Shown: positions 38,467 to 61,048, counted from the first letter of the stretch. The stretch: 64,000 nt of DNA from a virus (IMGVR_UViG_3300013426_000016:1-64000), one strand, 5' to 3'. Numbers and translations are program-made. Notes: generated by a model from the sequence alone, not told the origin.

Positions 38467-38493
38467 TAGCTATTTTATATAGCTATTTTATAA

Positions 38494-39286: not shown

Positions 39287-39666
39287 TGAGAAAAACAAAA
39301 AAGTATTACAGAGATCTAATTAATAAAGATAAAAATTCTGCTTTTTCCATTGCAGAAGAAGTCATTACCAAATATGGAACCCACACCAAAACTCGTGGAG
39401 AAAGAACTGTTCTTGCAGAGTCTAGTTTTCCATGGAATTGTCAGGTACATGGATTTAGTATTTATAAAAAGAAATTTTATGTAGATATTTATTGGCAAGG
39501 AGATTCTACAGATGGTATAGCAGCCGTTCTTTTTAAAGATGCTATTAAGGGTACTACTATATATAGAGAAGTAGATGGTCCATATGAAATACATGGTAAT
39601 TTACAAATTACTTCAGAAATGGTATATGAAGCACTAAAAGATTTCGCTAAAAGATATTTAAATTAA
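39286..39666 (+). CDS. Hypothetical protein
   Basis: Coupled ORF. Confidence 0.55.
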   Translation: MRKTKKYYRDLINKDKNSAFSIAEEVITKYGTHTKTRGERTVLAESSFPWNCQVHGFSIYKKKFYVDIYWQGDSTDGIAAVLFKDAIKGTTIYREVDGPYEIHGNLQITSEMVYEALKDFAKRYLN

Positions 39667-39675
39667 TTTAATTTT

Positions 39676-40737: not shown

Positions 40738-42323
40738 TGATTAATGAATTATTGTTTGAACAAGATGCACGAAAAAAGATTAAAGCTGGTATAAATACTG
40801 TGGCTGAAGCAGTTAAATCCACTTTAGGGCCTAAAGGAAAGTGTGTTGTGATTAAAGATCTTAATGGAAAAATAAAACTCACTAAAGATGGGGTTTCTGT
40901 AGCAAAAGAAATTAATTTGAGTGATTCCTTTGAAGATACTGGAGCACAACTTATAAAACAAGCAGCCATTAAAACTTTAACTGCTGTAGGAGATGCTACA
41001 ACCACAAGTACCATACTCGCACAAGATCTTATAAATAGAGGAGATGAAGTTCTTACAGACTCTAATTTTCCTAAATTGCAGCAAGGTATTTCTCTTGGTC
41101 TAGAACGAGCACTTGAATATATAAAGAAAGAAGCACGATCTATAAAGCAAAATGATTTGCAAAGCGTTGCTACTGTTTCAGCAAATAATGATTATGAAAT
41201 TGGAGAAATCATTGCTAGAGCGTTTAAGAAAATTGGTAAAGATGGAGTAATTTCTGTAGACGAATCTACTAATTATCAGACTTATGTGGATGTAACTACT
41301 GGAATGCAATTTGATAAAGGATATATTTCTAATCATTTTGTAACCGATGTAATTAAAGATACCTGTATTCTTGAAAATCCTTATATTCTTATTACAGAGG
41401 AAAAGATTACAAAGATGTCTAGTATAGCTCCTCTTTTAAATGAAGTTGCTTCTGAAAATAAAGCTATTCTTTTAATTGCTTCTGATTATAGTGAAAATGT
41501 TCTAGAAGCTCTTCGTTTAAATGTATTAAATGGAGTAATTAAACTTTGTGCAGTTAAAACTCCAACGTTTGGAGAATATAGAAAAGCGTTTTTGCAAGAT
41601 ATTGCCATTCTTACTAAAGGTAGAAGTATTAATTATGATATGGGATTGGAAATAGAAGATATAACTATTTCTGATTTAGGTCAGTGTAAAAAAGTAATCG
41701 TAAATAAGGATACTACTACTATTATAGGAGGAGAAGGTGATATTGATAATAGAGTAAAAGAACTTAAAGAAGATCTTGCTCGAATTAAGGCAGATGCCAC
41801 TATGGATGGCAGTTTTATGATTGATTTTCTTAATCAGAGAATTGCTAAACTTACTGGAGGTATTGCTAGAATTTATGTAGGAGGAACTACAGAACTCGAA
41901 CTTAAAGAAAGGAAGGATAGAGTTGAAGATGCAGTTGCTGCTACTAAAGCTGCTATAGAAGAAGGAATTGTAGTAGGAGGAGGATTAACTTATTATAACA
42001 TTTATAATTATCTGGACCAAAATTATCCAAGTGATTTAGATGTTAAACTTGGTTATGAAATCTTTAGAAATGCTTTACTTGCCCCACTTCACCAACTGTT
42101 TAAGAATAACGGCATTGTTACAGAAAAAGAGATTGAGAAATATACTTCTCAATTTACTGATAAAATTGGATATGATGCCAAAAATAACCTCATTACAGAC
42201 CTTTATAGAAGTGGGATAATAGATCCTGCCAAAGCAGCCAAACATGCTCTTAAAAATGCCGTTTCTGTGGCAAATTTATACCTTTCTATTTCTTGTGTAA
42301 TCAGCCCAATTATTGTTCAGTAA
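40737..42323 (+). CDS. groEL: Phage chaperonin (GroEL/Cpn60 family)
   Basis: TLGPKG, TKDGVSVAKEI, GDATTT, GMQFDKGY.S, RIAKLTGG, DRVEDAV.ATKAAIEEGIV.GGG, GIIDP.K. Confidence 0.95.
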   Translation: MINELLFEQDARKKIKAGINTVAEAVKSTLGPKGKCVVIKDLNGKIKLTKDGVSVAKEINLSDSFEDTGAQLIKQAAIKTLTAVGDATTTSTILAQDLINRGDEVLTDSNFPKLQQGISLGLERALEYIKKEARSIKQNDLQSVATVSANNDYEIGEIIARAFKKIGKDGVISVDESTNYQTYVDVTTGMQFDKGYISNHFVTDVIKDTCILENPYILITEEKITKMSSIAPLLNEVASENKAILLIASDYSENVLEALRLNVLNGVIKLCAVKTPTFGEYRKAFLQDIAILTKGRSINYDMGLEIEDITISDLGQCKKVIVNKDTTTIIGGEGDIDNRVKELKEDLARIKADATMDGSFMIDFLNQRIAKLTGGIARIYVGGTTELELKERKDRVEDAVAATKAAIEEGIVVGGGLTYYNIYNYLDQNYPSDLDVKLGYEIFRNALLAPLHQLFKNNGIVTEKEIEKYTSQFTDKIGYDAKNNLITDLYRSGIIDPAKAAKHALKNAVSVANLYLSISCVISPIIVQ

Positions 42324-42610
42324 TGTTACAATTTCCAGAAAAAATATATCTTCATAATTTAGGTCACGCCTATAGTTCATTTAAAAGAGAACTTATTTAT
42401 AAAGATATTAAAGGTGATGTAGCAAGATACGTAGCTACAGAAGTTTCTCGTATTATAGGAAATCTTGATGATATACAAGCAATTGACTTCGATGGGGGCC
42501 CTTTCTTAGGAGTAGGAGATTCTCTTTTTAATTCTTTTGTAATTACAGGCTTTGTAAGAGATAAGAAAACTAAAGAGATTTTAGTACTTTTGACAAAATG
42601 TTCTATTTAA
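42323..42610 (+). CDS. Hypothetical protein
   Basis: TAATG-coupled start MLQFPEK; IDFDGGP motif. Confidence 0.55.
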   Translation: MLQFPEKIYLHNLGHAYSSFKRELIYKDIKGDVARYVATEVSRIIGNLDDIQAIDFDGGPFLGVGDSLFNSFVITGFVRDKKTKEILVLLTKCSI

Positions 42611-42975
42611 ACTTAATTTTAATACTTGCTATTTCTTGGTTTTTAGGACAGGATAGAGCAAAGGCAGGTAAAGCAATAGGTTTCCGCTCATTATGTATAG
42701 TAATGTTAGGAGCTTATTGTTTTACATATTCAGCTTATATGCCTTCTGGAGGAATTGATTACCATGTTATTGCACAAATAGTTTCTGGTATTTCTTTCGT
42801 AGGAGCTGGATTAATTTTTAAGGACAAAAGTGTCCATAATTTAACTACTGCAATTCTAGTCTGGGCCTCTGCAAGTATAGCAGTATTATTAGGTTTAAAT
42901 AAGATTTTAGAAGCAGTAACTATAACTATTATAATTCGATTAGTTTTACTTTATAAAAAGAAAGAAAAATGTTGA
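42598..42975 (+). CDS. MgtC/SapB-family membrane protein
   Basis: G.DR....K..GFRS..IV.LGA, IAQIVSGISFVGAG.I, LTTA..VW. Confidence 0.85.
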   Translation: MFYLNLILILAISWFLGQDRAKAGKAIGFRSLCIVMLGAYCFTYSAYMPSGGIDYHVIAQIVSGISFVGAGLIFKDKSVHNLTTAILVWASASIAVLLGLNKILEAVTITIIIRLVLLYKKKEKC

Positions 42976-43340
42976 AAGAACGATTTTATTATGGCAGAGA
43001 GTATAAGCTAGCAAATATACCTTGCCTTATTTCTGACAGAGGAGAACTGCTTGCTACTGGCGAACCTCTACAAGTTAAGAGTCTTCCAAGGATTACTATT
43101 TGTGGCATTTGGGATACTAATACTAATATTATGTATTTTGGAGTTTCTAGATGTAGTGCAAGAGACCATTTTGATAAAAGAATTGGTAGAGATATTGCTT
43201 ATTCTCGTGCTCTAAATAAACCATTTAAAGTGGTTAAGATTCCTCCTACTTTGCATGTAAGTGATACTTTTATGTCTACTGCCAAGCTTATAGAGGAAGA
43301 AGTTATGAGTATGGTATATCCTATTAACCTTAATGGATAG
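42969..43340 (+). CDS. Hypothetical phage protein (CS..D.F.K.IGR.IA family)
   Basis: Conserved motif. Confidence 0.65.
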   Translation: MLKERFYYGREYKLANIPCLISDRGELLATGEPLQVKSLPRITICGIWDTNTNIMYFGVSRCSARDHFDKRIGRDIAYSRALNKPFKVVKIPPTLHVSDTFMSTAKLIEEEVMSMVYPINLNG

Positions 43341-43785
43341 CTATACCATTTATTGTGATGGTTCTTACCAAGCTTCTATAGAATGTGGTGGCTGAAGTGC
43401 TATTATTATAAAAGACGATACTATTATAAAGAAACTTTATTGTGGTTGTAAACATACTACAAATAATAGAATGGAACTAAAGGGAGTTTTAGAAGCTTTA
43501 AAATATTTTAAAACTCCCTCTATTCTCACCATTTATTCAGATTCTCAGTATGTAGTTAATTCTATTAATGCAAAACAAGTATATAAATGATTTGAAGAGC
43601 ATGATTATTCTAAGAAAAACTTAGACTTGTGATTTGAGATCATTGATTTACTTGACTTTCATACAGTTAACTTTATATGAGTAAAGGGGCATAATAAAAA
43701 CAAATATAATGAGTTAGCTGATTTATTAGCAGTTCATGCCGCACAGTGTCTTAATTTAGAAGAAGATGTTCCAATTAGTATTTAA
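43333..43785 (+). CDS. rnhA: Ribonuclease HI (TGA=Trp; 150 aa)
   Basis: IYCDGS, GG*SA, TNNRMEL, SDSQY, NLDL*, *VKGH, NELAD; all four Trp positions are TGA. Confidence 0.93.
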
Positions 43786-44131
43786 AAAAGTAGGAAATCA
43801 TTGGTATTTAGATATTCCTCATGAAAATCCATCTGACTTAAAACTAGATAGAAGAATTGAGTTCCTATTAACAAAAGCAGATAAATATAACGATAAAATA
43901 GTTACTGTTTATTTGCATGAGTTAACAGATGTTATTATAGAAGAAGGTTTAATCCAGTTTCAGGAAAGTGATTTTCAGAGGTATTTCTTAACTAACGATG
44001 ACTTTCAAATGAAAATGTGGATAAATAATAGAAAATTTACTATTTCTAGTAGTTTATACACATTAATCGAGAATTATTATCACTTAGATTTACACTTAGT
44101 TGCTTATAGAATAAGTTTATATGGAATTTAA
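43766..44131 (+). CDS. Hypothetical protein
   Basis: F.K...HWYLDIP motif. Confidence 0.6.
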   Translation: MFQLVFKKVGNHWYLDIPHENPSDLKLDRRIEFLLTKADKYNDKIVTVYLHELTDVIIEEGLIQFQESDFQRYFLTNDDFQMKMWINNRKFTISSSLYTLIENYYHLDLHLVAYRISLYGI

Positions 44132-44253
44132 AAAAATTGATGAAGTAGAAGCTTCTATTAAGGAGAGTTATATTAAAATCCTTAAGGAAAGAATTAGTCT
44201 TATGAAACAGTCCATTGTTGCTATTGAGGACGCTTTAGATTATCTTATAGAAG

Positions 44254-44571
44254 ATGCTACAAAAGAGAGTCATTAAAGCTAAAGTAATGGCAATTAGAAA
44301 GGACCTTTACTCCAAATATGTATTTCAGAATATTGATGAGGCAGAAAACAGTTTATATAGATATTTAACTGTTACAAGATGTCCAAATTGAAAAGAACCA
44401 GAAGATTTACGTGTGGGAGATGAAGGTTTTTTAGAATACGAAGATGTTAAAAAAGGAGATATTTATAAAGATAAAATAACAGGTGAAGATAAACAAATCC
44501 AGTATGATAACCTTTATTTTATGAACTTTGTAAAACAAATAAAAGATAATGTAAAAGAATATAGTTTTTAA
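44254..44571 (+). CDS. Hypothetical protein (TGA=Trp; 105 aa)
   Basis: One in-frame TGA (CPN*K); fills the intergenic gap exactly. Confidence 0.6.
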
Positions 44572-44572
44572 T

Positions 44573-45424
44573 ATGAAAGATATAAAGAAGATGACAGAAT
44601 TTGGAGAAACACTTAATACAGCACTTAACTCAGTTAATATGTATGTATGAAAGACATATAATGGTACAGAAGTAAAGCTTATAGAAATGACACCAAAAGC
44701 TCTACAAAAAGCTTATAATCATGTAAATGAAATGCTTTATAATAAGAGTAAACTTACACCAGGTAAGTACCAAGTAAAGAAGAATATACAGAATTATATG
44801 GCTAGTTGTAATGCAGAGTTGTTCATGCGTTATTTGCTTTACGAATGTAACATTGATTGTCTTAAAACAAATATCCAAATTATCGATTTTCTTAGAGAGA
44901 GTAAACGAGCTAATAATTTGAGTTCTACAGATTCAGTTACTACCGTATTTTCTAATGCACCGAGAGAATTTGAAACTGTCACCATTGGGCAACTTTTAGA
45001 TGCCTGTTTAGATAGATTGGGAGTATTTAATCGCAAAATGCTTACTGATAGTTTTATCCTTGCACAAGGTATTTGGCTAACAGATGCTGAAAAGAAAGAT
45101 CTTACGGAGTACGATGATAATGGAAACAAAAAACCATGAATTAATGTAATTAAGGAAAGACTTATGCTCCCAGTAGGAACTAAACTGAAACTTAATTCTC
45201 ATGGACTTTCTTACAAGGAATTTAGAGCTATTATACATCTTACAGAACTTCCAAAGTTCTCGAGCCTTCCAACAGATACTCTTCTTTTACTTAGAGACAA
45301 GATATTTGTACTTCTTGATTACGATACTGATTTCTTTATTGAGAAATGGTTGAAACTGAAATCACAAATAGAAGAAGTAGCTAAGGAAAGAGAAATTTCA
45401 CTATACTCTTCAGAACAAAAGTAA
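44573..45424 (+). CDS. Conserved hypothetical protein (TGA=Trp; ~283 aa)
   Basis: Joins track ORFs 44687 and 45164 in one frame; TAATG overlap with PolA. Confidence 0.7.
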
Positions 45425-47448
45425 TGATTTTATATTTAAGTAATCAGACACCTTTAATAGAAGACAGTAGATATAGACTTACTACAGTCGAAGAGGTCTT
45501 AGATTTATTTAAAGATATAAAATTAGTACAATTTGACACTGAAACAGATGGATTAAATCCTCATTTAAAACAGTTAATGACTCTTCAGATAGGTTCTGAT
45601 AAAATAGATACTAGAGTGGTTATAGATTGTACTACTGTAGATATACACCTATTTAAAGAGTTCTTGGAAAGCAAAATGCTTGTTTGTCATAATGGTAAAT
45701 TTGATTTACAGTTTCTTTATAAACAAGGAATTGTTCCAAGAAAAATTTACGATACTATGATTGCAGAACAACTTTTATATTTAGGTTATAGACCTGGTTA
45801 TATAAGTTATAGTTTAAAAGCTTGTGCTGAACGATATCTTGGTATAGATATAGATAAAACTGTTAGAGGGCAAATACGTTGAAGAGGAATAGATGCAGAA
45901 GTAATTGTTTATGGAGCAGGAGATGTAACTTATTTAGAGCAAATAATGTGAAAACAGTATGCTGAAGCAAAACGACAAAATTGCCTTAAAGGCGTACAAA
46001 TAGAATGTGAAGCCGTTCCTGCCATTGCCTATTTAGAATATTGCGGTATTTGTCTTGATGCTAAGAAATGGGAAGAAAAAATTATTAAAAATAAAAAATT
46101 AGTTGTAGAGTATAAAGAGCAATTAAATAATTTTGTAGTTTCTTTAAATGAAGGAAATAATCCTTTTTGTTATTTAGATCCACAAGGAGATCTTTTTTCT
46201 GGTTTTTCTGATAAACCTTCTTGTATAATAGATTGAAATAGTCCAGCACAAGTAACAGCTTTGGCTAAGTATTTAGGTTTTGATACTTCCACTCAGGATA
46301 AGAAAACAGGAAAAGATAAAGACTCTGTAATGGAAAAAGCATTAAAACCTCAGAAGGGAATTAATGACGAATTTTTAAAATTATATTTTGCATATAAAGA
46401 AGCTGCAAAGGAAGTCTCTTCATTTGGATATGGGCATATAAATGCAGTAAATCCTCTTACTAATTGTATACATACTACTTGAAGACAAATAGGAACTGCC
46501 TCAGGAAGAATGTCCTGTGGTGAAGGTACACATCCAGATGAAGAACTCGCTCAGTATAAGCATTTACCTAAGGGTGCTTGTCCTAAAGTTAATTTACAAC
46601 AATTACCTGCGGACGAAGAAACTAGAAGTTGTTTTATCTCTCCTCCTGGGCATTTAATGGTAAGTGCAGATTTCAGCGCTGAGGAAAGTCGTTTGGCAGC
46701 AGAAATTTATAATGAACCTGTTCTACTTGAGGAGTTTTTACATGGAAGTGGAGATGTGCATAGTGTATTTGCAAAGACTTTTTTTGCTAAAGAGCTAGAA
46801 GGAGTTCCGGTAAAAGACATTAAAGAAAAGTATCCAGAGTGAAGAAAGTTAGCAAAAGGTCCAGAATTTGCACTTTCTTTTGGTGGAGGCACAGGCCCTA
46901 TAAAATCTATTGTTCAGTGTTCGGAAGAAAGAGCACAAGAAATTTATAATAATTACCAAAAAAACATGAAGGCAACTTGTGATTTTGCAAGAAAAGGAGC
47001 TTTATTTGTTAAATCTCATGGTTATATTATTATAGATCCATATTCGGGAAATCGAATGCACTGAGCAGATTGAAAGGACTGATATAAAGAAGAACAACTA
47101 ATGAAATATGGAGGATATAACTCATTTTCTAAAGAACAACAAAATGAGCATCGAAAAACAGGTGCCTATTGGGAAAGAATGGCTAGAAATGCAGTAACAC
47201 AAGGTTCTGGAGCTGTAATATTAAAAATAGCCTTAAAGAATTTATTTGACTATATAATAGATAATAATTATTTTAATAAAATTAAAATTGTTGCCGCAGT
47301 ACACGATGAAATTGTTTGTACTTTTCCAGAAGAAAATAAAGATTTTCCAAAAATATTAGAACAAACTATGGAAAATGCAGCAGCAGTTTTAGTACATAAA
47401 TTACCTATACCAGCTGAAGCTAGTGTAGGAAATCATTGAATACATTAA
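45424..47448 (+). CDS. polA: Family A DNA polymerase with 3'-5' exonuclease (TGA=Trp; 674 aa)
   Basis: FDTETDG, HNGKFD, DTMIAE, D*NSPAQV, TASGRMS, NLQQLP, SADFSAEESR, R..AKGPEFA, N...QG, VHDE; four track fragments in one frame separated only by TGA (9 counted). Confidence 0.93.
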
Positions 47449-48356
47449 TGAAAATAAATTTACACCTTTTAAGAACTCTTTATTTGATTAATAGAGGGTC
47501 TAAAACAGAAGCTCCTATGCTTAATTTTATTTTAAATTATTGTAGGAATCTGAAAAATGTAGACATAGAAATAGATAATGAAAAAAATCTGTTTATAACT
47601 AAGAATACTACAAATCCTCTTTATATGCCTTGTATCATAGCGCATATGGACACTGTATTTGATTATGATTTTGAAAGAGAGCTTGTACAGAAAGGAAATT
47701 TTATTACAGCCAGAGATGCTAAAACAAAGGCTCCTTGTGGTTTAATGGCAGATGATTCTAATGGTATTTATTGTGCTTTGAGATTACTCGATATTATGCC
47801 AAATATTAAAATCTGTTTTACAACACAAGAAGAAATAGGAGGAATTGGAGCTGTAGTAGCTACTGAAAACACAGAGTTCTTTAATAATGTAAATTTCTTT
47901 TTACAGGCAGACAGAAGAGGGAACTCTAACATAATCACTTTTACAAATGGAAGAAAAATTGTTTCAGATAAATTTGTAGAAGATATAACACCTATAATTA
48001 AAAGGTATAATTATTCTACTACAAATGGTATTTTTACCGATATAGGAGAAATTGCCTTTTGGTGTGGTATTTCTGGAATTAATATTTCTTGTGGGTATTA
48101 TAATGAGCATACGGTAAATGAAACTTGTAATACAGTTGAATTACATAATTGTCTTTATCTTATGAGAGAATTAATAAATACTCTTAAAGATAAAGAACCA
48201 TATAAAGTAGAATTTGCTCCAAATAAAGATCTTGATAGATCTCTGTTGAAGTATAATGACTATTTCTCATATAATACACATGATTATCTGTTTGAACCTC
48301 TTCCTTGTGACACCTGTTCAGATATGGACTGTATGAATTGTACCAAAACATTTTAA
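47448..48356 (+). CDS. Zn-dependent peptidase (M20/M28/M42-like)
   Basis: AHMDTV, ADD.NG, EEIGG.G, DRRG, GYYNEHT; ATG overlaps the PolA TAA. Confidence 0.8.
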   Translation: MKINLHLLRTLYLINRGSKTEAPMLNFILNYCRNLKNVDIEIDNEKNLFITKNTTNPLYMPCIIAHMDTVFDYDFERELVQKGNFITARDAKTKAPCGLMADDSNGIYCALRLLDIMPNIKICFTTQEEIGGIGAVVATENTEFFNNVNFFLQADRRGNSNIITFTNGRKIVSDKFVEDITPIIKRYNYSTTNGIFTDIGEIAFWCGISGINISCGYYNEHTVNETCNTVELHNCLYLMRELINTLKDKEPYKVEFAPNKDLDRSLLKYNDYFSYNTHDYLFEPLPCDTCSDMDCMNCTKTF

Positions 48357-51300
48357 TGGACAGAACAGAAAGACAGAAATTAGGAATTAAACGCTGATTA
48401 GAAGCCGGAGCTATCGGAACGCTCGAATACGGTACGGGCGTAGGTATCGAAATAATAAAAGCCTAGCTTCTTAGGAATAAGAAGTTTTTATTGGGCAAAA
48501 TCGGTAAAACTCCAAAAGGACAATACCGAGGTAATTTAACTAGTAATATAGTTAAACACCGTAGAGCGTAGGGAATGAACCTAAAAATAGAATATAATTT
48601 CCCCAAGAGTGTCCAATACCCCAACTGAAATAAGTGGGTAAAAATGTACGCCGAGCTATAAGGTAACTTATAGAACTAAAGGATAAAAAACCTTTAGGAT
48701 AACATTACTGAAGACCCGCACTGCTATAATGGCTATACAGCTATTATTAAGAAAGAATCCAGAAGCTTCTATTTTAATCAGCGTTCCAACCAACTATCTG
48801 AAAAACCAATGAATAGAAAATCTCCAAAAGTTTAATATAGAAAATTGTGAAGTTGTAGTGATAAATACAATAGTTAGGCATACATATACTGTTGATTTGC
48901 TAATAGTCGATAAATAGGCTTTGTTGACTTTAAATTTACTTAATTGTCGGGAACTTCCTTAGAGTTCTTTCTACTAAATTATAATAGAAATATATATAAT
49001 GGTGAGAATAATTACCTCAGTATAGTAAAAAAGAAAGAAATTGGATAATCCGCAGCCAAGCTTCTAATTTAGAAGAAGGTTCATCGACTATCCCAAATGG
49101 GAGTACAGAATAAAATTCTGGAAACAGTAAAATTTATAATTTTTAATTAAAAAATGAAAAAACTTTATTATTTTTATACTTTATCTACAACAAAAGATAT
49201 ATCTAATATTAGATACGTAGGCGTTACTACTCGTACTTTAAAACAAAGATTAAGTGGGCATAAATATTGTGCTCTGCATAAAAATAAGAGATCTACCGCA
49301 GTTCATAAATGAATGTATTCGGAATATTTAGCTGGAAATGATATAATTATTTCTCAAATAGATTGTTGTGAAGAAGCTGTCTGAGAGGAAACAGAAAAGT
49401 ATTGAATTAAAGAATATCAAAACAAAGGGTTTAAATTATTAAATATCCAAAAAGGCGGCTCCGGAATAGTAACAAAAGAAATGAGAAATAAAGAAGGGTT
49501 GCAAAGAAGTATAGATGCTCATAAAATTCCAGTATATGCTTTAGATGATAATTTAAATGTAGTTTTAGAATTTTCTTCAGCTGTAGAAGCAATTCGATTT
49601 TTTGGAGGAAAAAGTAAAACTGCTATATCAAATGCTATTTCTAAAAACGTTAGTACTAAAAAATCATTTGGTTATTACTGAGTAAAACAAAATGATTATA
49701 AAAATGGAAATTTTTATGTTAATACCACTCCTAACTTTGAAAGTTTTAAAAAGAAAGTGTATCAGTTTGATAAGAACGGTACGTTTGTAAAAATGCATGA
49801 AAGTATAAAGAGTATAGAAAGGTATTATAATATACAAAATTCTTCTCCTTTAAGACACGCTATAAGAAAGAAAAGATTATATAAAAATTCATTTTGATCT
49901 TTTGAAAAAGAAGCCGACTTTGATTTAAATTCTCCATTTAGATTTTTTGAAATAGATAAAAATGAAAATATAATAGATAGGTATTTAAAAGTTGAAGATA
50001 TTTTGAAAAAATATAACTGCTCTTCTAATTTTTTATACAAAAAGGATAAAAATACTAAAGGTATATTACCCAATGGTAATAAAATTATAAAAAATAAAAA
50101 TTATAAATAAGATATAGTCAGACTTTATATGAAAGTATAAAGAGTTTTGGAAGCACATGGTGCGGCCGCTACAACCCTCCTTTCTATCTTTACTACAGTT
50201 AGTTATAGAATGCTTTTATGCTTAACTGCCACTATAGATAGATTAGATGGTAGAGGAGAAATCCTTAAACAATATGCACCAGTATGTGATCAGATAACCT
50301 TAACAGAAGCAACTAAAGAAGGTTGAGTAGCTCCAGTTAAAAACTATTTAGTTCTCTTAGATGTTGATTTACAGCCATATAAAGAATTAGATAGAAAATT
50401 TAATAGCTATTTTGCGTTCTTTGGCTTTCAGTTTGATACAGCTATGAACTGCTTGCAAAACTGACGCTTTCGCAACAAATATGCTAAAGAAATAGGTTCT
50501 GATCCAAAAACTGTTTTACAAATGAGTTCCTGTTGAATGAAGGCTTTACATGCAAGGAAATCCTTTATAGAAAACCATCCTAAGAAAATAGAAATTTGTA
50601 GAAGAATAATAGATGCAAAACCGAATACTAAAGGTATTTTATTTTGTCCTACTATAAAATTTGCAAAAGAAATTAAAAGGGGAAAGGTTTTATACTCTGC
50701 ACAAAAAACTTCTGAAAATAAAAAAATTATAGAAGAATTTAATGTTGCGGAGAAAGGATGAATCGCTTCGAGTCGTATGTTGAATGAAGGTAAACCAAAA
50801 AATCTAATTTAAAAGACATTTAATGAAAAAATTTTATTTATACACACTTAATGATCCTAGAACAAATGTTCCTAAATATGTGGGAATTACTTGTAATTTA
50901 CAACAAAGATTAATGTACCATCTAAAAGACACCGCAGATACAAAAAAGACACGTTGAATACATACTTTAAAAGAAGAAGGTATTACTCCTATAATCACTA
51001 AATTAGAAGAATCTGAAGATATTTATAAAATAATTAATCTAGAAATAGAGTATATTAAAAAGTATAAAGAAACTTTAGATTTAGCAAATACAACTATCGG
51101 TGGTGAATATTATGCAATTGGTACTCCAATAGATTGCTATGATTTACAAGGTAATTATATAGAAACTTTTTCATCTATGGTGGAAGCTCTGCCTGGGATA
51201 AAACACTATAGTGGTATTTCTGCTGTATGTAATCATAAACGAAATTATGCTTATGGTAAAATCTGAAGATATCAGGGAGAGCCTGTTACTAAAGAAGATT

Positions 51301-52219
51301 TAGAAAAAGTTAAAAAATCTCTTAATAAAGCTAAATATAAAGAAGTTTTAATAATAGATTTAGAAGGAAATATCTTAGATAGATTTCCTTCTTTAACTAA
51401 AGCCGGTCAAAGTAAAAAGTGGGGATCTATCAGTAATTTACGTTGTGCGATGAAAGGGCATAATGCCCATGGAAATTCTTTTCTTGCTAAGAATCATTTT
51501 ATTTGTTCTTCCATGGAAGATTTTTATGAAAAACGTAAAAAATATGAAGATTTTTTAAAATCTAAAATTGTTCTTCAATATACTTTAGATGATGAATTTA
51601 TAGCAGAATATCCTTCAGTAATGGAAGCAAGTCGTGTATTAAATAAAAGTTGGGCTTCAATTTTTAGATGTTGTAAAGGACAACAACAAGAAGCTCATGG
51701 TTTTAAATGGAAACTTAAGTTTTAAATATAAATACGCCGTGTAATAAAGTAATTTATTATAGTATAATACCTGGATATCGTTGAAAGCTAAACTTTTTAA
51801 AAGCATGCTAACTTAACGAGGCAAAGAGCTAAAGACTCAGCCCTAGAGACTAGATACAGGTACCCCTATTTTAGGGTGAAGATATAGTCCAGACTGTAAA
51901 CAATTTTTTGGAAAGCGAAAGCTTTTAGCAGTAGGTAGATATTCAAGGACTTACAACAGGAATCATAATGAATGTGAATAGTTCTAAAATTTCTAGTGTC
52001 CAAAAAACTGGTCGTTGTTGTAGATTTGCACCTAATAAAGTTGCAGAAATATTTACATTGGCCATTAAAGGAACTCAGGAAGTAAAATGGTTTAATAACA
52101 GTAGCACAACAGAGTATATAACTATAAATGACTCTACAGACTTAGACAAAGTATTAAATGGAGAAGAAATAAACTCTCGACAAAGAGAGTGAACAGAAGA
52201 TAAAACTTATAGATTTTAA
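48356..52219 (+). CDS. SF2 (DEAH) helicase, spliced: exons 48356-48445, 48711-48911, 50150-50791, 51935-52219 (~405 aa, TGA=Trp)
   Basis: Exon joining restores GTGVG|KT (Walker A), LIVD|EAH (Walker B), LTAT, NEG|VDI (motif V), QKTGRCCR (motif VI); every exon length is a multiple of 3. Confidence 0.9.
48446..48710 (+). ncRNA. Group I intron, ORF-less (265 nt), in helicase Walker A
   Basis: Exon ends in U, intron ends in G; P1 taggt/gccta with U.G pair; core resembles the intron at 55561. Confidence 0.85.
48912..50149 (+). mobile_element. Group I intron with homing endonuclease, in helicase DEAH motif
   Basis: P1 agtcgat/gttgact; AATCCGCAGCCAAG, GACTA...AAGATATAGTC (P7) elements; terminal G. 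Confidence 0.88.
49154..50110 (+). CDS. GIY-YIG/NUMOD1-type homing endonuclease (TGA=Trp; 318 aa)
   Basis: YFYTL...IRYVGVT..LKQRL..H, E.Y*I, LLN...GG; NUMOD1-like repeats; five in-frame TGA. Confidence 0.8.
50792..51934 (+). mobile_element. Group I intron with homing endonuclease, in helicase motif V
   Basis: GGT| 5' junction, terminal G, GAGACTA...GAAGATATAGTCC core downstream of the ORF. Confidence 0.85.
50823..51725 (+). CDS. GIY-YIG/NUMOD1-type homing endonuclease (TGA=Trp; 300 aa)
   Basis: YLYTLNDP...KYVGIT.NLQQRL..H, LE..YI, N.T.GG; C-terminal VLQYTLD.EFIAEYPS..EA...GFKW. Confidence 0.82.
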
Positions 52220-52266
52220 AATGACTTAAATAGTAATTTTTGGAACTAAATACGATTTTAAATTTA

Positions 52267-52833
52267 ATGTCAGCTTACAATCTCACAGCAGATGAGCTGC
52301 TTTTAATTTATATAACCCTCTTAGCAAGAGACGAAGAGGGTAATGCTACTTATTTTTCACAGTGATTTAATAATGGAGGAAGAGAAAGACTTAGAGACTT
52401 ATTTTCTTCTTTAAAGGAAAAAGGAGTAATCCTTAAATCTTATAATCCAGAATCTTATATACCTAATGATATAGAGTTTAATAAAAATTTTTTAAAAAAG
52501 TGATATAAATTTTCTGGAGAGATGGGCCAAGAATTACTTAATGCTTATCCTTCATTTTTAAATATACAGGGAAAATATGTTCCACTGAAAGATGTTTCTA
52601 AAAGATTTGCTTCTTTAGATGACTTTTTTAATTTTTATGCTACACAAATAGGTAGTAATCCGGAAAAACATAAAGAAGTAATGGGAATTCTTAATTGAGC
52701 TAAAGAAAATAATTTACTTAATTTTGGAATTTTAAATTTTGTAATTTCTAATCAGTGGAATAATTTGAAAGAACTTAGAGATAATCCAGAAATGGTGCCT
52801 ATATACCAAGATAGTATTTTAACAGATGACTAA
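52267..52833 (+). CDS. Hypothetical protein preceding DnaB-like helicase (TGA=Trp)
   Basis: Open to TAA 52833 apart from TGA codons; overlaps the helicase start. Confidence 0.65.
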
Positions 52834-53932
52834 TGTAGATTTACTTTTTAAGAAAATTGATGAAGGTAGAGCTGGAAAAAATATTGGATTGAGTACAGGT
52901 ATACCTAAATTAGATAAATATACAGGAGGAATCCAAAAAGGTGTTTATACACTTATTTTTGGACTTTCGGGTTCCGGAAAGACTTCCGTAGCTTTATATA
53001 ATTATATTTATCGCCCATTAAAAGATAATCCCGAAAAAGATCTTAAATATATTTATTTTTCTTTGGAATTAGGAGCAGATGTTTTGCTCAGCAAACTCCT
53101 CTGTTTATGGGTTTATGAGGAATTTGGAGTAATAATACCTTACTCCTCTATAATGTCTTGAAAAGAGCCTTTAAATGACGAATTTTACAATTATATATGT
53201 AAGGGAAGAAAATGACTAGAATCTATTTCTGAAAAACTTATAATAATAGATACTAATCTTTCTTCAAAAAACTTTTATTCTAAAATAATGACATTTTTAG
53301 AAGAATGAGGGACATTTAAAGAATCTGAAGATGGAAGAAGAAAAATATATATTAAAAACAATCCAGAGCAGTTTGTAACAGTTGTTCTGGATCATATAGG
53401 TCTATTACTTTGTTGTGATGGACATACTAAAAAACAGGAAATAGATTTAGTTTCCCAGTATGCAGTATCTTTAAGAGAGAGATGTGGTGTTTCTTTTGTA
53501 ATTTTACAACAAGAAAATAGAAATTCTGCATCCTCCGATAAAATTAAAATGGATATGACAGACTGTAGTCTAGACGGCCTTAAAGATAGTGGCAATACTG
53601 GAAATGATGCAGAATTATGTATAGGAGTCTATAATCCTATAAAATTTAAATTAAAAACTAAATCTGGTTATCCAATAATTTCAGAAGACAACGGTTTTGG
53701 TTTTACGGGCTTTAGAAATCGAATTAGATTTTTGCAGATCATAAAGAACCGTACAGGCCCTTCTGATAAGTCTATTCCAGTAAACTTTTTTGGAGAAATC
53801 GGTCTCTTCAGAGAATTACCAAAACCAGAAGAAATTAAAAATCCATTGGACTATATGTCCTTAAACCCAAATAAACAAGAGATCGTAGAACCAGACAGTT
53901 CTACAAAAAAATTTATTTCATATGAATTTTAA
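52826..53932 (+). CDS. DnaB-like (SF4) replicative helicase (TGA=Trp; 368 aa)
   Basis: STGIPKLD...GG, GLSGSGKT, FSLEL, VLDHIG, QQENR, LKDSG, IIKNR.G. Confidence 0.88.
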
Positions 53933-53935
53933 AAA

Positions 53936-56900
53936 ATGGCTATAACATTACCTACGACAAAAATTCCTGCTACTACTCAAGATCCTAAATACTTAATCCT
54001 TTTTGGATTACCAAAGGTTGGAAAAACAACAATTCTTTCTACTCTTGAAGGAAATTTAATTTTGGATTTGTAATAAAGTCCCTATAATCAGTAATGATTA
54101 TAGCAAACCCCTTGAATTTTTGGAAAAACTGTTATATTTATTCCCATTTTCAAAAATATTTTTTTGTATATTTGTAAATGGTTTTAAGTATGTTTAACAG
54201 TTAATCAAAAGCTAAGTATGAATGATATAGAAAAATTATGTTTATATAAAGGAAAAGAAGTAGAAACTAAAATTGAAGATGTTGATTATCAATCTAATAA
54301 AGAATTTCAATCTGATTTTTACAATGTTATAAAAAGCATTTCGCAAAAAGTAAATGGCAAATATATGTATTTTTACATAGTAGAGTGTAAAAAATGTGGA
54401 TCTCTAAAAAAGATATATAGGTCAGATTGAAAAAACCAAAAACTTAGAATGTGCAAAAGGTGCCTCTCTATTACAAAAAGAGAATCTCACATTGGTTATG
54501 AAAATAAAACATATAAAGTTGTTGGTATTAATTTTGAGAGAAGTAATCAAAATAAAAGACGTGTTTATTATGATGTTGTATGTAAAAATTGTGGCGCAAA
54601 ACTAGTGTTACGTTGAGATGCAATTTATTCTGACACTAAAAATACGCGCTGTTCAAAGTGCTGTGGAAATAATATTATTCCATCAGAAAATGCCGTATAT
54701 AATGTTTTATACAACTCATATAAACAAAACGCAATTATGCGTAATTTTGGTTTTGAATTAACAAGACAAGAATTTAATAATTTAATTTTACAAGATTGTT
54801 TTTATTGCGGAAATCCTCCTCACGAAGTACAGTCATTAAAACGTTATAATAAAACAGGAGTTCCTATTTTTACAAATGGAATAGATAGAAAAAATTCAAA
54901 TTCTGGATATACTATTGAAAATTGTGTCCCATGTTGTGAAATGTGCAATAGAATGAAATTAAATTATGATATAAATACTTTTTATAAACATATATATAAA
55001 ATATATCATCATAAAAGTTTAACGACTATCTCGCAAGAGAGTACATCACAAGCTAATGGTGATGGAAGTGGGGGGTCTCCAGAAATGGAGAATGATATAG
55101 TCTAATCTGCATGGCGACATGCAGCTGCCAAAAGCGCATGTAATGTTGCGAATTACATGGAATATAAATGTTTGAAAACGGTTCTGATTATGTTTCTGCA
55201 CTTAAAATGAAAGTTAATTCTATTAAAGAACTTAATGAAATCTGTACAGCTATAAAAGAGGCCAAATGTCCATACAAATATATTACAATAGATACTATTA
55301 CAGCAGTAGAGGAAATGGCTAAACCTCTAGCAATTAAACTCTACCAAGATTCCCCAATGTTTTCTGAGAAATATGCAAATGTTAAAGATCCCGCAGCTCT
55401 TCCTAATGGTTCGGGATTTTCATTTTGGAGATCCTCAATAGAACTCATTATTAACAAAATTGCTTCTTGTGCCCCAAATATTATAATTTGTGGACACGTT
55501 AAAGATGCTGCACTTTCAGAAAGCACAAATGGTAATTTAAAAACTCTCGATTTAACAGGTAAAATTTTTGCATAAAATAAAAAGTATTTTTATATTTGTA
55601 TTTATAAAATAATCGAATATGGAAAATACTATTAGTACACTTTATTTAGAAGGTTTGTCAAGTAGACAAATTTCAGATTTTTTAAAAATAGATAAAAAAG
55701 AAGTAGATTTATATATAATAGATAATTATTTTACAGAAAAGAAAAATTCTAAACAAAAAATAACAAAAGAGATTTTAAAGGAAGCTTTAAGTTTAAAATA
55801 TAAAGGAGAAACTTTTGAAAATATAGCTAAAAAATATAACCTTTCAAGTAGTCTTTTTACACAGAAATTTAAAAAACTTAGAATAGATTATAATTCAAGA
55901 AAATATGATTATTCTTTATTAAATAAAGAAACTGTTACTGACATAGTTAAAAAATTTAATGATGGGTATACCGTTAACGATTTAATTAAAATCTACGGTT
56001 TTAATAAAACTGTTTTGGCAAACGTTATTAATGAAAACGGAGGAAATACAACTCCATGTTCTTTTTGTTCTACTATATTTGATAATATAGATACTGAAGA
56101 AAAGGCATACTGGTTAGGGTTTTTATATGCAGATGGTTGTGTTGGAAGTAGAGATAATTCTCTAGAATTATCTTTACAACTTTTAGATGCAAAACATTTG
56201 TATAAGTTTAAAAGTTTTTTAAATGCAGAAAACAAAATTGCTTTAGACTTTAAAATAGGTACATTTGGAAGGTGTAGATTTTCTATTTCTAATAAACATT
56301 TTAAAGAAACTTTAATTTCTTTAGGTTGTTTTCCGCAAAAGTCTTTAAGGTTAGAATTTCCAAAAGAAAACCAAGTTCCAACAGAATTTTTAATCCCTTT
56401 TATTAGAGGTTATTTTGATGGAGATGGTTGTTTATCCCACACTTTTAGTGATACTATTAAATCTCGTTTCACAGTTAAAACTAGTTTTATTGGAACAAAA
56501 GAGTTTATATTTTCTTTACTGAAGTTCCTCAAAACACAAGAAATTTTTGGATCTATTTATAAAAATAAAACTTATAAAGATAATACTTTAGAAGTAAAAT
56601 TCAATAAAACTAATTCTGTTAAATTACTAAATCTTATATATAATGATGCTTCTATTTATTTAGATCGAAAATTTGAAAAATACAAATTTTATGCTAAGCA
56701 TCATAATTTTGCCGTCTCTGTAAGTGATTACAGAGATTATGAACGAACAATATCGGAGAAGGCTAAACACTGAATAAATAAATATTTTAATATAGATTTT
56801 GATACAGTGCACGCTAACACCGAGATAACTAAAAAACGTAACGGGTTTTTAGCATCGTAACGCATAGAGGTTGAAACTATATATTTTATAGAATAAAATA

Positions 56901-57226
56901 CCTCCACGAGTGTTCGTTATCTTTTTAAAAAGATAAATATATATGCTGATCTTATGAGAAATTATAAGAATTAAGAGATAAAAAACTCTTAAGATAACAA
57001 AATGAAAACTTCGAGAATTTTAGCTGCAAAGTCAGACGCAATCGGTTTCGTGCACCGAAATGAAAATAGTGATCTTTGTATACAGTTTGGAACTGATGGA
57101 GAAGTACTTACTGGAGCAAGACCCCAACATCTCGCAAATAAAGATATTATAGTAGCAGAACGTAAAGAGGATGGTTCTTTTGTTCCACATTGGGAAAGAA
57201 TCTATCCATCTCTTAATAGCAAGTAA
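53936..57226 (+). CDS. AAA_24 / Sak4-like phage NTPase, spliced: exons 53936-54067, 55171-55560, 57005-57226 (~247 aa)
   Basis: FGLPKVGKTT, LILD|FENG, ITIDTIT, ICGH.KD, DLTG|KT, DAIG; exon lengths multiples of 3. Confidence 0.87.
54068..55170 (+). mobile_element. Group I intron with HNH endonuclease
   Basis: P1 ggat/gtcc with U.G pair, GACTA...ATATAGTC P7, terminal G. Confidence 0.85.
54218..55105 (+). CDS. HNH (His-Me finger) homing endonuclease (TGA=Trp; 295 aa)
   Basis: CxxC ribbons, CFYCG...NGIDRKNS..GY...NCVPCCEMCNRMK; joins track ORFs 54218 and 54737. Confidence 0.82.
55561..57004 (+). mobile_element. Group I intron with LAGLIDADG endonuclease
   Basis: GGT| junction, terminal G; core at ~56710-57004 resembles intron 48446. 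Confidence 0.85.
55619..56860 (+). CDS. LAGLIDADG homing endonuclease with N-terminal HTH repeats (ends 56773 if TGA stops, 56860 if Trp)
   Basis: AYWLGFLYADGC and FIRGYFDGDGC double motif. Confidence 0.9.
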
Positions 57227-57582
57227 TGGAAGCAACTATTAAAGTGCAGAATAATAAATTAGTTTTAAACAAAGAGGCTACACAACTTCTTGGTGTTAAA
57301 GCTAATGATCGAATTGCAGTAAATTATTGATCACAGAATGCAGAAGAGACTTTTCCAGTAATTGGAAGAGCCTCTTTATTTGCTTGTGACGGAAACAGAT
57401 TAACGAAATCTAACACGGTTTCCTATAGAGGAGCACAAAGAGACATTTTGCTCCAATATGGAAATTATTTTAAACTAGAACCATTTAAACATTATTTTAA
57501 AATGGTTAAAATAGAGGAACCCGAAATTACCTCTGAAGAAACATTTGAAGAAGAAGAAGAATATCTTAACAATTTAATTTAA
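57226..57582 (+). CDS. Hypothetical protein (TGA=Trp; 118 aa)
   Basis: TAATG coupling; one in-frame TGA. Confidence 0.6.
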
Positions 57583-57589
57583 AACAAGT

Positions 57590-58258
57590 ATGAATTTTAA
57601 TTTTGATGAGGCCCTTAAGGCAAAAGAGACAGGTAAATTTCTTTCATTTGGTATAAAGGACGCTACTTTTAAGGGCGTTGAATATGGCCAGCAGACAACT
57701 CAGAGTGGTGAGGATCTTGCTTATATGGCTATGAAGTTTGATATTGATGGTTATGGAGACTATGAGGCTAAGATTTTTGAGCCTCGTTCTAATGAGCGCC
57801 AAGAAATGCAGTGGGGACTTACACCTTCTCCTCTCGATCATTTTCTTATTATAGTACGAGAGTTGCTTGAGGCAATTGCTCCAACAGCTTTTGAAGAGCT
57901 TAATGAAGGCAAAAAGAAGCTTTCTGGTAGCTTTAAACAAGTAGTAGCTGCGGTTGCTAGTATGACTGCTCCGGGCATTGGAACAAAGACACAAATTAAG
58001 CTTGTTCCTAATAGTAAGGGTTACGCAAATCTTCCTGCATTTCCGGCTCGTCTTACTAAAGATGGACAGCTTGGAATTTCCACTCGTATTATTGGAAAGG
58101 ATCTTACTCTTACAGCACGTGAGCTTAAGCAAATTGAGACAGCACAGGCAGCTAAGCCAACGCAGATGTCTACTTCTACCACTACAGATACAGTAAACTC
58201 TATGCTTGATGATCTTAACGGTTCGGATTCTTCTTCAGATTCAGATTTACCGTTCTAA
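57590..58258 (+). CDS. Putative single-stranded DNA-binding protein
   Basis: Acidic tail ending DLPF; follows the Sak4-like ATPase. Confidence 0.6.
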   Translation: MNFNFDEALKAKETGKFLSFGIKDATFKGVEYGQQTTQSGEDLAYMAMKFDIDGYGDYEAKIFEPRSNERQEMQWGLTPSPLDHFLIIVRELLEAIAPTAFEELNEGKKKLSGSFKQVVAAVASMTAPGIGTKTQIKLVPNSKGYANLPAFPARLTKDGQLGISTRIIGKDLTLTARELKQIETAQAAKPTQMSTSTTTDTVNSMLDDLNGSDSSSDSDLPF

Positions 58259-58261
58259 GAG

Positions 58262-59266
58262 ATGGAAATAACTTTTCCAGTTATTCTTTCTAAAGAGCTT
58301 ATTTATAATAAAGTTCGTGAAGAGGAAATCTTGGAGTATTATTTAGGTATTCCAGTAAAAAAAGGTTTATTTAAAAGTCCATTAAGAAATGATAATTCTC
58401 CCACTTGTGCTTTTTATAGAGCGCGTAATGGAAGGATTATTTTTAAGGACTTTTCTGGAGCATTTTCTGGAGATGCTATATCTGTAGTTATGGAGAAATT
58501 CCAATGCAGTTATATGAAAGCTCTTCAGATTATAGCGAATGACTTTGGGATTGTAAAAAATGAAAATCTTAAAGTAAATAAACCTAAAATGGAATACTCA
58601 GGTAGTATATTGGAAGAAAATAAAACCAGTATTATACAAGTAGAAATACGAGATTTCCAAGATTACGAACTCGCTTGATGGAAAACATATGGGATTACAG
58701 AAAAGACTCTAAAACACTTTAGGGTCTTTTCTTGTAAGAACATATGATTAAATGGTACTTTATTTCATTTAGAAACAAGTAAGCAAAAGATTTTTGGTTA
58801 TTTTGGAGGAACAAAAGATGGAGTAGAAAATTGAAAAATCTACTTTCCTGGGAAAAAGAAATATAAATTTATTTCTAATTGGAAAGCAACTAAAATACAA
58901 GGAGCCGCCCAATTACCAAAAGAAGGTGGAGAGTATTTAGTAATTACAAAATCTCTTAAAGATTGTATGACTTTATATGAATTTGGAATTACAGCAATCG
59001 CTCCTAACTCAGAAAATTTATTTGTTACTCCTGCTCAGTATGAGAAATTAAAAACTAAATTTAAAAATATTTTAATTGTTTATGATAATGATTTAGCTGG
59101 TATCCACGGATTAAATAAGATTAGAAAAGAATTTCCTGGAACAAAAGTAGCTTTTATACCAAGAAAGTATGAAGCAAAAGATATTTCTGATTTCTATAAA
59201 AAATACGGAAGAGAAGAAACTCAGAAATTGATAACCACAGCTAAAAATTTTTATTTTAATGGCTAA
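58262..59266 (+). CDS. DNA primase (DnaG-like TOPRIM; TGA=Trp; 334 aa)
   Basis: SPLRNDNSPTC...FKDF, ITKSLKD, SE, YDND.AG, KDISD; fragments 58262 and 58967 share a frame. Confidence 0.87.
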
Positions 59267-59648
59267 AAAACGATCCGCAAACTATTGTCGTACAAAAGGA
59301 AATACTTTTGAGCGTAAAATAGTAAAAGAGCTGAAAGAACTTGGATTTAACGTAGGTACTACAAGAAATAACTCTAGAACAGAAGATGCAGATAAGGTAG
59401 ATATATATGATGTAGATAATACACTACCTTGTAAGATACAATTAAAAGCCACACAACAAACTCCACAATATTTTAAAATACGTTCAGAATCTTCTGTTAA
59501 AGCAGAAGACTTTGTAGTACTTTGATCGAAACAAGAAAAAAGAACTACAAATATAGTCTCAGTTGGAGAAGTTGTAATTATGGATAAACAATTATTTTAT
59601 AAACTTATAAAACCTTATGCAAATGGAAAAAGTACAAGTGACATTTAA
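59259..59648 (+). CDS. Holliday junction resolvase-like PD-(D/E)XK nuclease (TGA=Trp)
   Basis: KGNTFER.I..EL..LGF, D..KVDI, IQLK. Confidence 0.7.
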
Positions 59649-59827: not shown

Positions 59828-61048
59828 ATGTTACCATTACTTTCAGATAGTTTAAAAAATCTTCTTTTGTCTATTTCTGAAGAAAATGACAGTGATATAA
59901 TTAATGATCTTCTTGTTGCTAATGAGTTAGTCGAAATAGCAAGAAGTTTTAATGATCCAAATTTCGATAAAAGTTTTTCTAAAAACATTTCACAACTAAT
60001 TAATGATAATTACAGAATGCTCACTTTTCGTCAAAATGAATTATTAATTTCATTTTTGCCTAAAGGAAAAGATCCTATTTATACAAGTGAAAATAAATGG
60101 GGAAGAACAAATCGTCAATTTGGTAAACCTGCACGAATAATCCAAAATCTTTTAGTAAAGAAATATTCTTGCAAAGAATTCGAGGATTTTCAGAATTTTT
60201 TTAAGGCTAAAGTATCTGAAATAGATTTTCGTATTGTAGAAGGATCTGATATTACAAAGTATTATAACAAAGAGAATTACTACCAAGAAACAGGAACTTT
60301 AGGAAATAGTTGCATGCGTTATAGTACTTGTGAGTCTTTCTTTACTATTTATGAGGATTATGCAAAAATGCTTGTAGCCTTTAAAGATGATAAAGTTGCA
60401 GGGCGTGCTCTTATATGGGAAATAAATGGAGAAACATATATGGATAGAGTATATACTTATGTAGATTATTTGTATAATGCTTTTATCATGTATGCAGAAG
60501 ATCATCATTGGTACCATAGAGAAGATAATTCTCTTCTTAGCGATGGGGAGGATCAAAATTTTGTAGGACCTAAAGATGATTATGAAAGATCTTTTTATCC
60601 AAGTTTGGAATTAAAAATTAATCCTGGATATGAAATATTTCCTTATATGGATAGTTTTAGATACTATTGTCGAGATACAAATACTCTTTGTACCTCTTGT
60701 TGTGATGATTGTATATATCTTTCTAATACAGACGGCCGTATTGGGGAATCTTATTATTGTGCAGATTGTGGAAGAGAATTTATTAGTAACGAATATCCGG
60801 AAGAGTTACATTACTCAGAATATGCCGATAGAGATCTTTGTAATGATTGTTGTTGGTATTGTGAATATTTAAGGGACTATATTCCAGATACTGATCCTGT
60901 GGTGGAAATGAAATGTGGTGATATTACTGCATGGGATGTTCCAGTATCTTATGTAGAAGACCCAGACGAGTATGAGGAAATTAATGATATTTATTATAAA
61001 TTATCTGCCTATACAGAAGAAGAACTCGAAGCTATAAGAAATGAATAA
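59828..61048 (+). CDS. Hypothetical phage protein (GNSCMRY domain + CxxC repeats)
   Basis: GTLGNSCMRY, GRALIW, MDRVY, PYMDSF motifs. Confidence 0.7.
   Translation: MLPLLSDSLKNLLLSISEENDSDIINDLLVANELVEIARSFNDPNFDKSFSKNISQLINDNYRMLTFRQNELLISFLPKGKDPIYTSENKWGRTNRQFGKPARIIQNLLVKKYSCKEFEDFQNFFKAKVSEIDFRIVEGSDITKYYNKENYYQETGTLGNSCMRYSTCESFFTIYEDYAKMLVAFKDDKVAGRALIWEINGETYMDRVYTYVDYLYNAFIMYAEDHHWYHREDNSLLSDGEDQNFVGPKDDYERSFYPSLELKINPGYEIFPYMDSFRYYCRDTNTLCTSCCDDCIYLSNTDGRIGESYYCADCGREFISNEYPEELHYSEYADRDLCNDCCWYCEYLRDYIPDTDPVVEMKCGDITAWDVPVSYVEDPDEYEEINDIYYKLSAYTEEELEAIRNE

Follow-up and report, generated by a model that had tools for sequence, protein, structure and literature searches.

Why would a phage that reads TGA as tryptophan (Trp) crowd this codon into the genes that copy its DNA? 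The question is raised by positions 43333-59648 of IMGVR_UViG_3300013426_000016:1-64000, a stretch of 64,000 nucleotides (the window) at the start of a 203,856-bp IMG/VR virus record. The region encodes the replisome of a low-GC phage, hereafter the present phage, and the original prediction had read its in-frame TGA codons as a translational gate on DNA replication, the reverse of the late-gene bias reported for many recoded phages. Our analysis favors another account as the probable one: a genome-wide split into early and non-early genes, the second class starting at the replisome, with neither a replication-specific gate nor a reversal of the late bias.

Open reading frames (ORFs) were called under genetic code 4 over the whole record. 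In the low-GC part, coding density was 0.925 under code 4, with TGA as a sense codon; reading TAG as sense instead gave 0.842, and code 11 gave 0.828. Of the nine TGA codons of PolA, five or six align with TGG-encoded Trp in the standard-code relatives L001/L003, and each of the four Trp columns of RNase H holds Trp in four genomes, written as TGA in 15 of the 16 cases and otherwise as TGG. These alignments indicate that TGA encodes Trp in the low-GC phage. A putative suppressor tRNA with the anticodon UCA was indeed identified upstream of the replisome block on the same strand, as had been proposed; its gene is located inside the TGA-free early array, 4.8 kb upstream of the block and co-oriented with it (Table 1). 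Searches of the whole record with PF00472, PF03462 and PF00579 yielded no match for a release factor (RF1/RF2) or tryptophanyl-tRNA synthetase (TrpRS) gene, which distinguishes this phage from those with a Jade-type code-change operon composed of RF1, TrpRS and tRNA.

The TGA share, defined as TGA/(TGA+TGG), was strongly non-uniform across the genome, and the same pattern was found in four relatives. The block at 43333-59648 contains 45 TGA and 20 TGG codons (0.69), and 17 of its 24 ORFs carry TGA, as compared with 113 TGA among the 588 Trp codons in the remainder of the phage (odds ratio, OR, 9.5; Fisher p = 4e-16); relative to the late genes alone the OR is 6.9 (Fisher p = 1e-11). Our counts confirmed that RNase H uses TGA for every Trp and PolA for nine of eleven, with three of the latter at 47062, 47071 and 47080. 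The early genes are nearly TGA-free, as the original prediction had also stated. The array at 28.0-43.3 kb has 4 TGAs among 72 Trp codons (0.06), with exceptions at 34151, 34343 and 42973, the last of which is probably the true stop codon of MgtC; at least two of the four are probably real stops or ORF over-extensions (codon 126 of 137 in MgtC, codon 49 of 51 in 34007-34162). TGA is also missing from 59.6-63.4 kb (0 of 17), where the genes between 59.8 and 62.8 kb use only TGG, as foreseen (15 codons), and from 176.2-182.6 kb (0 of 41). The terminal repeat links 176.2-182.05 kb to 24.9-43.3 kb, and together these make up one plus-strand, TGA-free array of ~24 kb that includes the tRNA gene. 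The share is 0.16 in the nucleotide-metabolism block (63.4-78.5 kb), 0.17 in the giant virion genes and 0.29 in the other late genes.

As a measure of what third-position composition alone would give, we used the A-ending fraction at Lys, Glu and Gln (K/E/Q) codons, which is 0.73-0.78, against block TGA shares of 0.69-0.75. In the present phage, 45 of 65 (0.69) did not differ from a K/E/Q A fraction of 0.78 (binomial p = 0.10). Thus, of the claim that recoded codons concentrate in the replication module, the difference from the remaining genes stands (0.69 versus 113 of 588), but an enrichment beyond neutrality does not. At Trp residues of the block conserved between the present phage and L027, TGA accounts for 0.71 and 0.75 of the codons, respectively, and the A fraction at conserved K/E/Q codons is 0.73. 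The third bases of K/E/Q codons were statistically independent between these two genomes (OR 1.5, p = 0.17), indicating that synonymous sites are saturated. Early-like genes, with 3 TGAs among 128 Trp codons (p = 8e-71 against 0.75), have the same third-position A/G bias as the block, and GC content at third positions (GC3; 0.18-0.23) and K/E/Q A fraction (0.74-0.81) are alike in the TGA-free and TGA-rich plus-strand blocks. Since the block share equals the K/E/Q A share and the early genes are depleted at the same A/G bias, the block is at neutral equilibrium, and purifying selection acts against TGA elsewhere. Among late genes, those coding for proteins of at least 1000 amino acids (aa) have a TGA share of 0.14, as compared with 0.37 in the shorter ones (p = 7e-7).

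The syntenic loci of the relatives were found by using the TGA-free M42-like peptidase as an anchor. The neighboring genes are 96-99% identical to those of the present phage in L023, ~75% in L026, and ~50-65% in L027 and L030, which are contigs of 167-168 kb. In all five genomes the early part contains zero or one TGA, the replisome block has a share of 0.66-0.75, and the first post-primase genes have no TGA. The code switch falls exactly at the start of RNase H in all four relatives, down to ~55% protein identity, and ends after primase/RusA. Three genes within the block, coding for the 121-aa ORF, the M42-like peptidase and the AAA_24 ATPase, are TGA-free in all genomes examined, and their translation may be required ahead of suppression. 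The genes between 39286 and 48356 overlap or abut, with the start of RNase H overlapping the preceding TGA-free gene by 8 nucleotides. The switch at 43333 is therefore located inside an overlapping plus-strand array, the strand switch being at ~78.5 kb. A scan of 36-56 kb for promoters and terminators gave the same counts as shuffled sequences and found no terminator-like site at the code boundary. That the boundary is found inside one array of overlapping or abutting genes argues that the separation of early from non-early genes acts at translation.

The polymerase slot of this locus is variable. Its occupant in the present phage is PolA (window 45424-47448), and in L023 and L026 an unrelated 630-aa polymerase (8109-10001 of both; phrog_1252, no Pfam match), which is 14% identical to the present PolA and TGA-rich, with 7 TGA and 1 TGG in L023 and 8 and 0 in L026. 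The flanks being 96-99% identical to L023, the swap appears to be recent, yet both alleles are TGA-rich.

The late genes bear directly on the proposed specificity for replication. TerL, the large terminase (150320-152527, minus strand), has 5 TGA and 7 TGG codons. TGA occurs in 39 of the 65 late ORFs, including a portal fragment (TGA/TGG, 1/2), an endolysin-domain protein (2/6) and nearly all giant virion genes. A gate specific to replication is thus not supported, as TerL, portal and giant virion genes carry TGA and the genes for dUTPase, ThyX and NrdD are TGA-free or TGA-poor. In the packaging-region orthologues of two relatives, TGA makes up 0.61-0.66 of conserved Trp codons, a share equal to their own K/E/Q A fraction, versus 0.34-0.45 in the present phage. 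At the level of the clade, late genes are as TGA-saturated as the replisome, and the excess of replisome over late genes is peculiar to the present phage. The supposed reversal of the late-gene bias therefore found no support. The major capsid gene was not found by PHROGs, by tblastn against GenBank phages or by a PDB sequence search, so that the idea that abundant proteins avoid TGA draws on the giant proteins and the homing endonucleases only.

In the early/non-early account that we favor, TGA in the replisome block would be an unconstrained synonymous Trp codon, whose share of ~0.7 matches the A:G ratio at the other two-fold purine-ending codons of this AT-rich genome. Elsewhere it would be selected against, being absent from the ~24-kb early array, the 3.8-kb post-primase island and a few single genes in the block, strongly depleted in giant virion and nucleotide-metabolism proteins, and partly depleted in the other late genes of the present phage. 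In a standard-code Bacteroidota host, the TGA-free set alone would be translatable at first. Once charged and abundant, the suppressor tRNA would outcompete RF2 and make the replisome, then the virion and most late proteins, translatable. The claim that replication depends on the tRNA is retained, as full-length replisome enzymes require TGA decoding, but not as a replication-only gate, since virion genes are recoded too. More tentatively, the early-to-middle transition might be enforced purely at translation, such that synthesis of the replisome would be conditional on charged tRNA(UCA) and the three TGA-free genes of the block could be translated before the switch.

Several points weigh against the early/non-early account. 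The share in the shorter late genes of the present phage (0.37) is significantly below that of the replisome block (p = 1.6e-5), presumably for reasons of expression level. The temporal classes are assigned by gene content and published models, and the ORF calls are heuristic, so that some N-terminal TGAs may stem from over-extended ORFs. Finally, a neutral frequency of TGA may be compatible with the gating itself being useful.

This last point leads to the possibility that TGAs are retained in the replisome because tying replication to the build-up of suppressor tRNA pays, as a timer, a checkpoint or a switch to dormancy or a carrier state. Each core replisome enzyme does carry several TGAs in the five genomes, the boundary within the overlapping array is sharp and kept to ~55% identity, the tRNA gene lies upstream and co-oriented, and the consistent lack of TGA in three in-block genes points to gene-level selection on TGA status. 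Yet the TGA share does not rise above the neutral expectation, and in genes with 4 to 11 Trp codons each, drift by itself should leave one TGA or more. The late genes would be gated too, and in relatives they are equally saturated; dUTPase, ThyX, RNA ligase and polynucleotide kinase/phosphatase (PNKP) are TGA-free, and NrdD has one TGA. The position of the tRNA gene inside the early array means that the delay could be short. Nor was there an overall positional bias toward the N terminus, where a TGA would allow a cheap abort (Mann-Whitney U, p = 0.47); TGG-dominated genes do have slightly more TGA within their first 35 codons (6/53 versus 6/237), but this is confounded by over-extension of ORFs under code 4. 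We thus regard such a gate as unlikely.

Mosaic origin appears less plausible still. Under this hypothesis the replisome came from, or resided longer in, an older code-4 lineage, and the TGG-only blocks are recent imports from standard-code genomes. The clade does exchange replication genes, as shown by the two polymerases between flanks of 96-99% and ~75% identity; the tRNA cassette has been swapped as well, and the late-gene TGA share differs between the present phage (0.34-0.45) and its relatives (0.61-0.66). However, GC3 and K/E/Q fractions are alike, meaning that the TGG-only genes are compositionally ameliorated, and the same genes are TGA-free across lineages whose synonymous sites are saturated. 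Synteny in L027/L030 suggests an equal age, within the clade, of the TGA-free genes and those of the replisome. Gene age alone fails to account for the pattern, because the blocks do not differ in third-position A/G bias and both swapped polymerases are TGA-rich, such that TGA status follows gene class rather than residence time. That the host itself uses code 4 and the pattern is incidental is highly improbable, for although a GC content of 31% is typical of code-4 organisms, five genomes avoid TGA completely over ~28 kb of genes, the phage has a tRNA(UCA) gene of its own, its TerL, portal and PolA relatives belong to crAss-like phages of Bacteroides/Flavobacteriia, and the co-assembled 45-kb phage uses code 11 and resembles phages of Parabacteroides, Alistipes and Bacteroides.

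Table 1. Features of the replisome block and flanking regions. Coordinates are in the window except where marked "record"; counts are TGA/TGG.
Feature	Position	Strand	Evidence	Counts and remarks
tRNA, anticodon UCA, predicted opal suppressor, G73 discriminator	38494-38568	+	ARAGORN; Rfam tRNA, 64 bits	
Last 7 kb of early array: IMPDH-like dehydrogenase, PcfJ-like, AAA ATPase, GroEL, MgtC, 123-aa ORF	36166-43340	+	Pfam/PHROGs	1/12
RNase H, first recoded gene	43333-43785	+	PF00075, E = 1e-29	4/0; TGAs at 43393, 43588, 43630, 43678
121-aa ORF, TGA-free island	43766-44131	+		0/2; 0/11 over five genomes
Two conserved ORFs of unknown function, 105 aa and 283 aa	44254-45424	+	TGA/TGG states at conserved Trp columns common to relatives	1/0 and 2/2
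PolA with 3'-5' exonuclease	45424-47448	+	PF00476, PF01612	9/2
M42-like peptidase	47436-48356	+	phrog_4191, E = 2e-43	0/1; TGA-free in five genomes
SF2 helicase, four exons (48305-48445, 48711-48914, 50150-50791, 51914-52216)	48305-52216	+	Pfam; tblastn of intact L027/L030 helicases	8/1
197-aa ORF and DnaB-like helicase	52240-53932	+	PF03796 (helicase)	3/1 and 3/1
AAA_24 ATPase, three exons (53936-54067, 55174-55566, 57005-57223)	53936-57223	+	Pfam, PHROGs, tblastn	TGA-free
118-aa ORF and 222-aa ORF	from 57226	+		1/0 and 0/1
Primase	58262-59266	+	Toprim_2 / Zn_ribbon_DnaG	3/2
RusA-like resolvase, end of recoded block	59259-59648	+	phrog_244	1/0
TGA-free island: 406-aa unknown, MazZ-like dATP/dGTP diphosphohydrolase, PDDEXK exonuclease	59828-62845	+		0/5, 0/6, 0/4
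Homing-endonuclease ORFs outside the window	record 66972-67904, 68602-69360, 125892-127617			

The features of the locus are compiled in Table 1. The only in-frame TGA between 36166 and 43340, at 42973, is codon 126 of the 137 of the MgtC ORF, at the position where MgtC ends in L026/L027. It is likely to be a genuine early-gene stop, in which case read-through after the onset of suppression would add 11 residues. Neither Pfam nor PHROGs gave a match for the 121-aa ORF. The SF2 helicase gene is split by three inserts, two of which contain GIY-YIG ORFs (49154-50110, 5/0 TGA/TGG; 50823-51725, 2/3), and the inserts of the AAA_24 gene contain an HNH/EndoVII ORF (54218-55105, 2/0) and a LAGLIDADG ORF (55619-56860, 1/1). 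According to tblastn, both genes are uninterrupted in L027/L030. Despite these split genes, an Rfam scan of 24-64 kb detected no group I intron at the gathering score.

Downstream of the block, the island at 59828-62845 is likewise TGA-free in L027/L030. Farther along, TGA/TGG counts are 1/14 in NrdD, which carries an intein, 2/2 in NrdG, 0/4 in dUTPase, 0/3 in ThyX, 0/6 in RNA ligase, 0/7 in PNKP and 2/1 in the dNMP kinase gene. Replication genes in the wide sense are thus not uniformly recoded, and the core replisome is. The TGA-free genes include those for an RNA ligase and PNKP of the tRNA-repair type (record 73296-76523), a full-length GroEL without any Trp (window 40737-42323) and the MazZ-like protein (61041-61808).

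The homing-endonuclease ORFs have 18 TGA and 7 TGG codons, close to neutrality wherever they are located, including the TGG-dominated nucleotide-metabolism block. This suggests that code-4 phages pass them on among one another and that translational selection on them is weak.

The suppressor-tRNA cassette has been swapped between near-identical phages. L023 and L026 have tRNA genes of 77-95 nucleotides at the same early-array site (L023:1853-1947, L026:1858-1934, versus window 38494-38568). The L023 tRNA has a UCA anticodon arm and a long extra arm whose loop, CUCCAAA, is that of a normal Trp tRNA with the anticodon CCA; the L026 tRNA has the same CCA-loop arm, its UCA anticodon being unconfirmed. 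In such two-armed tRNAs the extra CCA-loop arm possibly acts as a mimic for recognition by TrpRS.

Over the whole low-GC phage, an in-frame TGA is followed by A in 52% of cases and by T in 16%, and a TGG by A in 35% and by T in 25% (chi-square p = 0.002); T comes after 47% of the genuine TAA/TAG stops. The bias after in-frame TGA may reflect avoidance of strong termination contexts.

The record itself is composite. Positions 1-24,865 and ~182,938-203,856 have a GC content of ~52%, read well in code 11 and include a large terminase gene of their own (19967-21505, minus strand), whose product is 55-58% identical to TerL of ~45-kb phages of Parabacteroides, Alistipes and Bacteroides. With their own TerL, code 11 and phage relatives, these flanks represent a second phage, and their interpretation as host DNA was rejected. 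The low-GC genome (31% GC) between them is bracketed by a direct repeat of ~0.9 kb (24866-~25750 and 182053-~182937), the first 614 bp of which are identical and the remainder ~90% identical; the unit between the direct repeats measures 157,187 bp. The record thus corresponds to a figure-eight join of two phages, a ~45.8-kb code-11 phage of 52% GC and a 157-kb crAss-like phage, as either a cointegrate or an assembly chimera. Among the Logan contigs of four public runs, none spans 24788-24866, and it is exactly at 24866 that contigs enter the low-GC side.

The low-GC phage, of gut type, can be placed among the crAss-like phages by the similarity of its TerL, portal and PolA. TerL is 28-45% identical to proteins of crAss-like and uncultured gut phages, and PolA is 34-39% identical to those of Kolpuevirus, crAss001 and IAS virus, its nearest annotated PolAs being crAss-like. 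No PolA relative in IMG/VR exceeds 47% identity, and these relatives encode Trp by TGG only. A TerL-based search of IMG/VR revealed no closer relatives, and DNA comparison with GenBank phages gave short patches only. Mobile elements abound, with the split helicase and AAA_24 genes, the NrdD intein and at least eight homing-endonuclease ORFs. The 157-kb unit, split genes, intein, homing-endonuclease density and distant TerL and portal similarity suggest membership of the Zeta group. Like the Zeta crAss-like phages (PMC7886860), which fall in a 145-192 kb class, have many introns, inteins and homing endonucleases, recode TGA or TAG with suppressor tRNAs and switch the type of DNA polymerase, the present phage measures 157 kb and recodes TGA.

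How does this organization compare with known recoded phages? Yutin et al. 2021 (PMC7886860) found reassignment mostly in late genes, yet their Fig. 7c presents one PolB and intron ORFs from the Zeta group that contain multiple TGAs. Borges et al. (bioRxiv 10.1101/2021.08.26.457843) call replication genes 'variably' recoded and report that in Lak phages they mostly are; in the Mgcod study (bioRxiv 10.1101/2022.06.29.495998), unrecoded genes include those for replication, and the code switch follows the strand switch. The present phage shares with these dual-code phages the use of TGA for Trp, a suppressor tRNA(UCA), a TGA-free early set that includes the code-change machinery, in-frame TGA in structural and packaging genes, and a TGA essentially unused as stop. 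It differs in that the replisome, in their model usually part of the standard-code block, is the most TGA-dense part of the genome, and in that the code switches at the start of RNase H inside a plus-strand array rather than with the strand. In the Zeta-group phage Lera (PMC12386605), TGA occurs in 41 ORFs, mainly those of structural or lysis genes, whereas here the replisome is at neutral saturation and early, post-primase and nucleotide-metabolism genes are purged. Lak megaphages, which read TAG as Gln, likewise have recoded replication genes and differ in stop codon, amino acid, clade and genome size; a per-codon neutrality analysis is not reported for them. Recoded replication genes were thus already on record in Lak phages and for Zeta crAss PolB. 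The additions made here are the neutrality test, the conserved boundary in mid-array and the TGA-free islands.

Automated annotation and the textbook picture assume standard-code replication genes and recoded late genes only, to which the present phage and its four relatives are a conserved counterexample that can be explained at the level of codons. In these phages TGA is found at neutral frequency where translation follows expression of the suppressor, and it is purged the more, the earlier a protein is needed and, apparently, the longer or more abundant that protein is. The TGA share relative to the K/E/Q A share therefore offers an easy way of assigning individual genes of uncultured recoded phages to a temporal or expression class, and the TGA-free genes for GroEL, AAA ATPase, MgtC, RNA ligase/PNKP, the MazZ-like protein and exonuclease form a candidate set for takeover before the switch. 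If the arrangement were selected for, genome replication in this subclade would be under a conserved checkpoint acting at translation, which may have to do with the persistent, non-lytic lifestyle seen in crAss-like phages.

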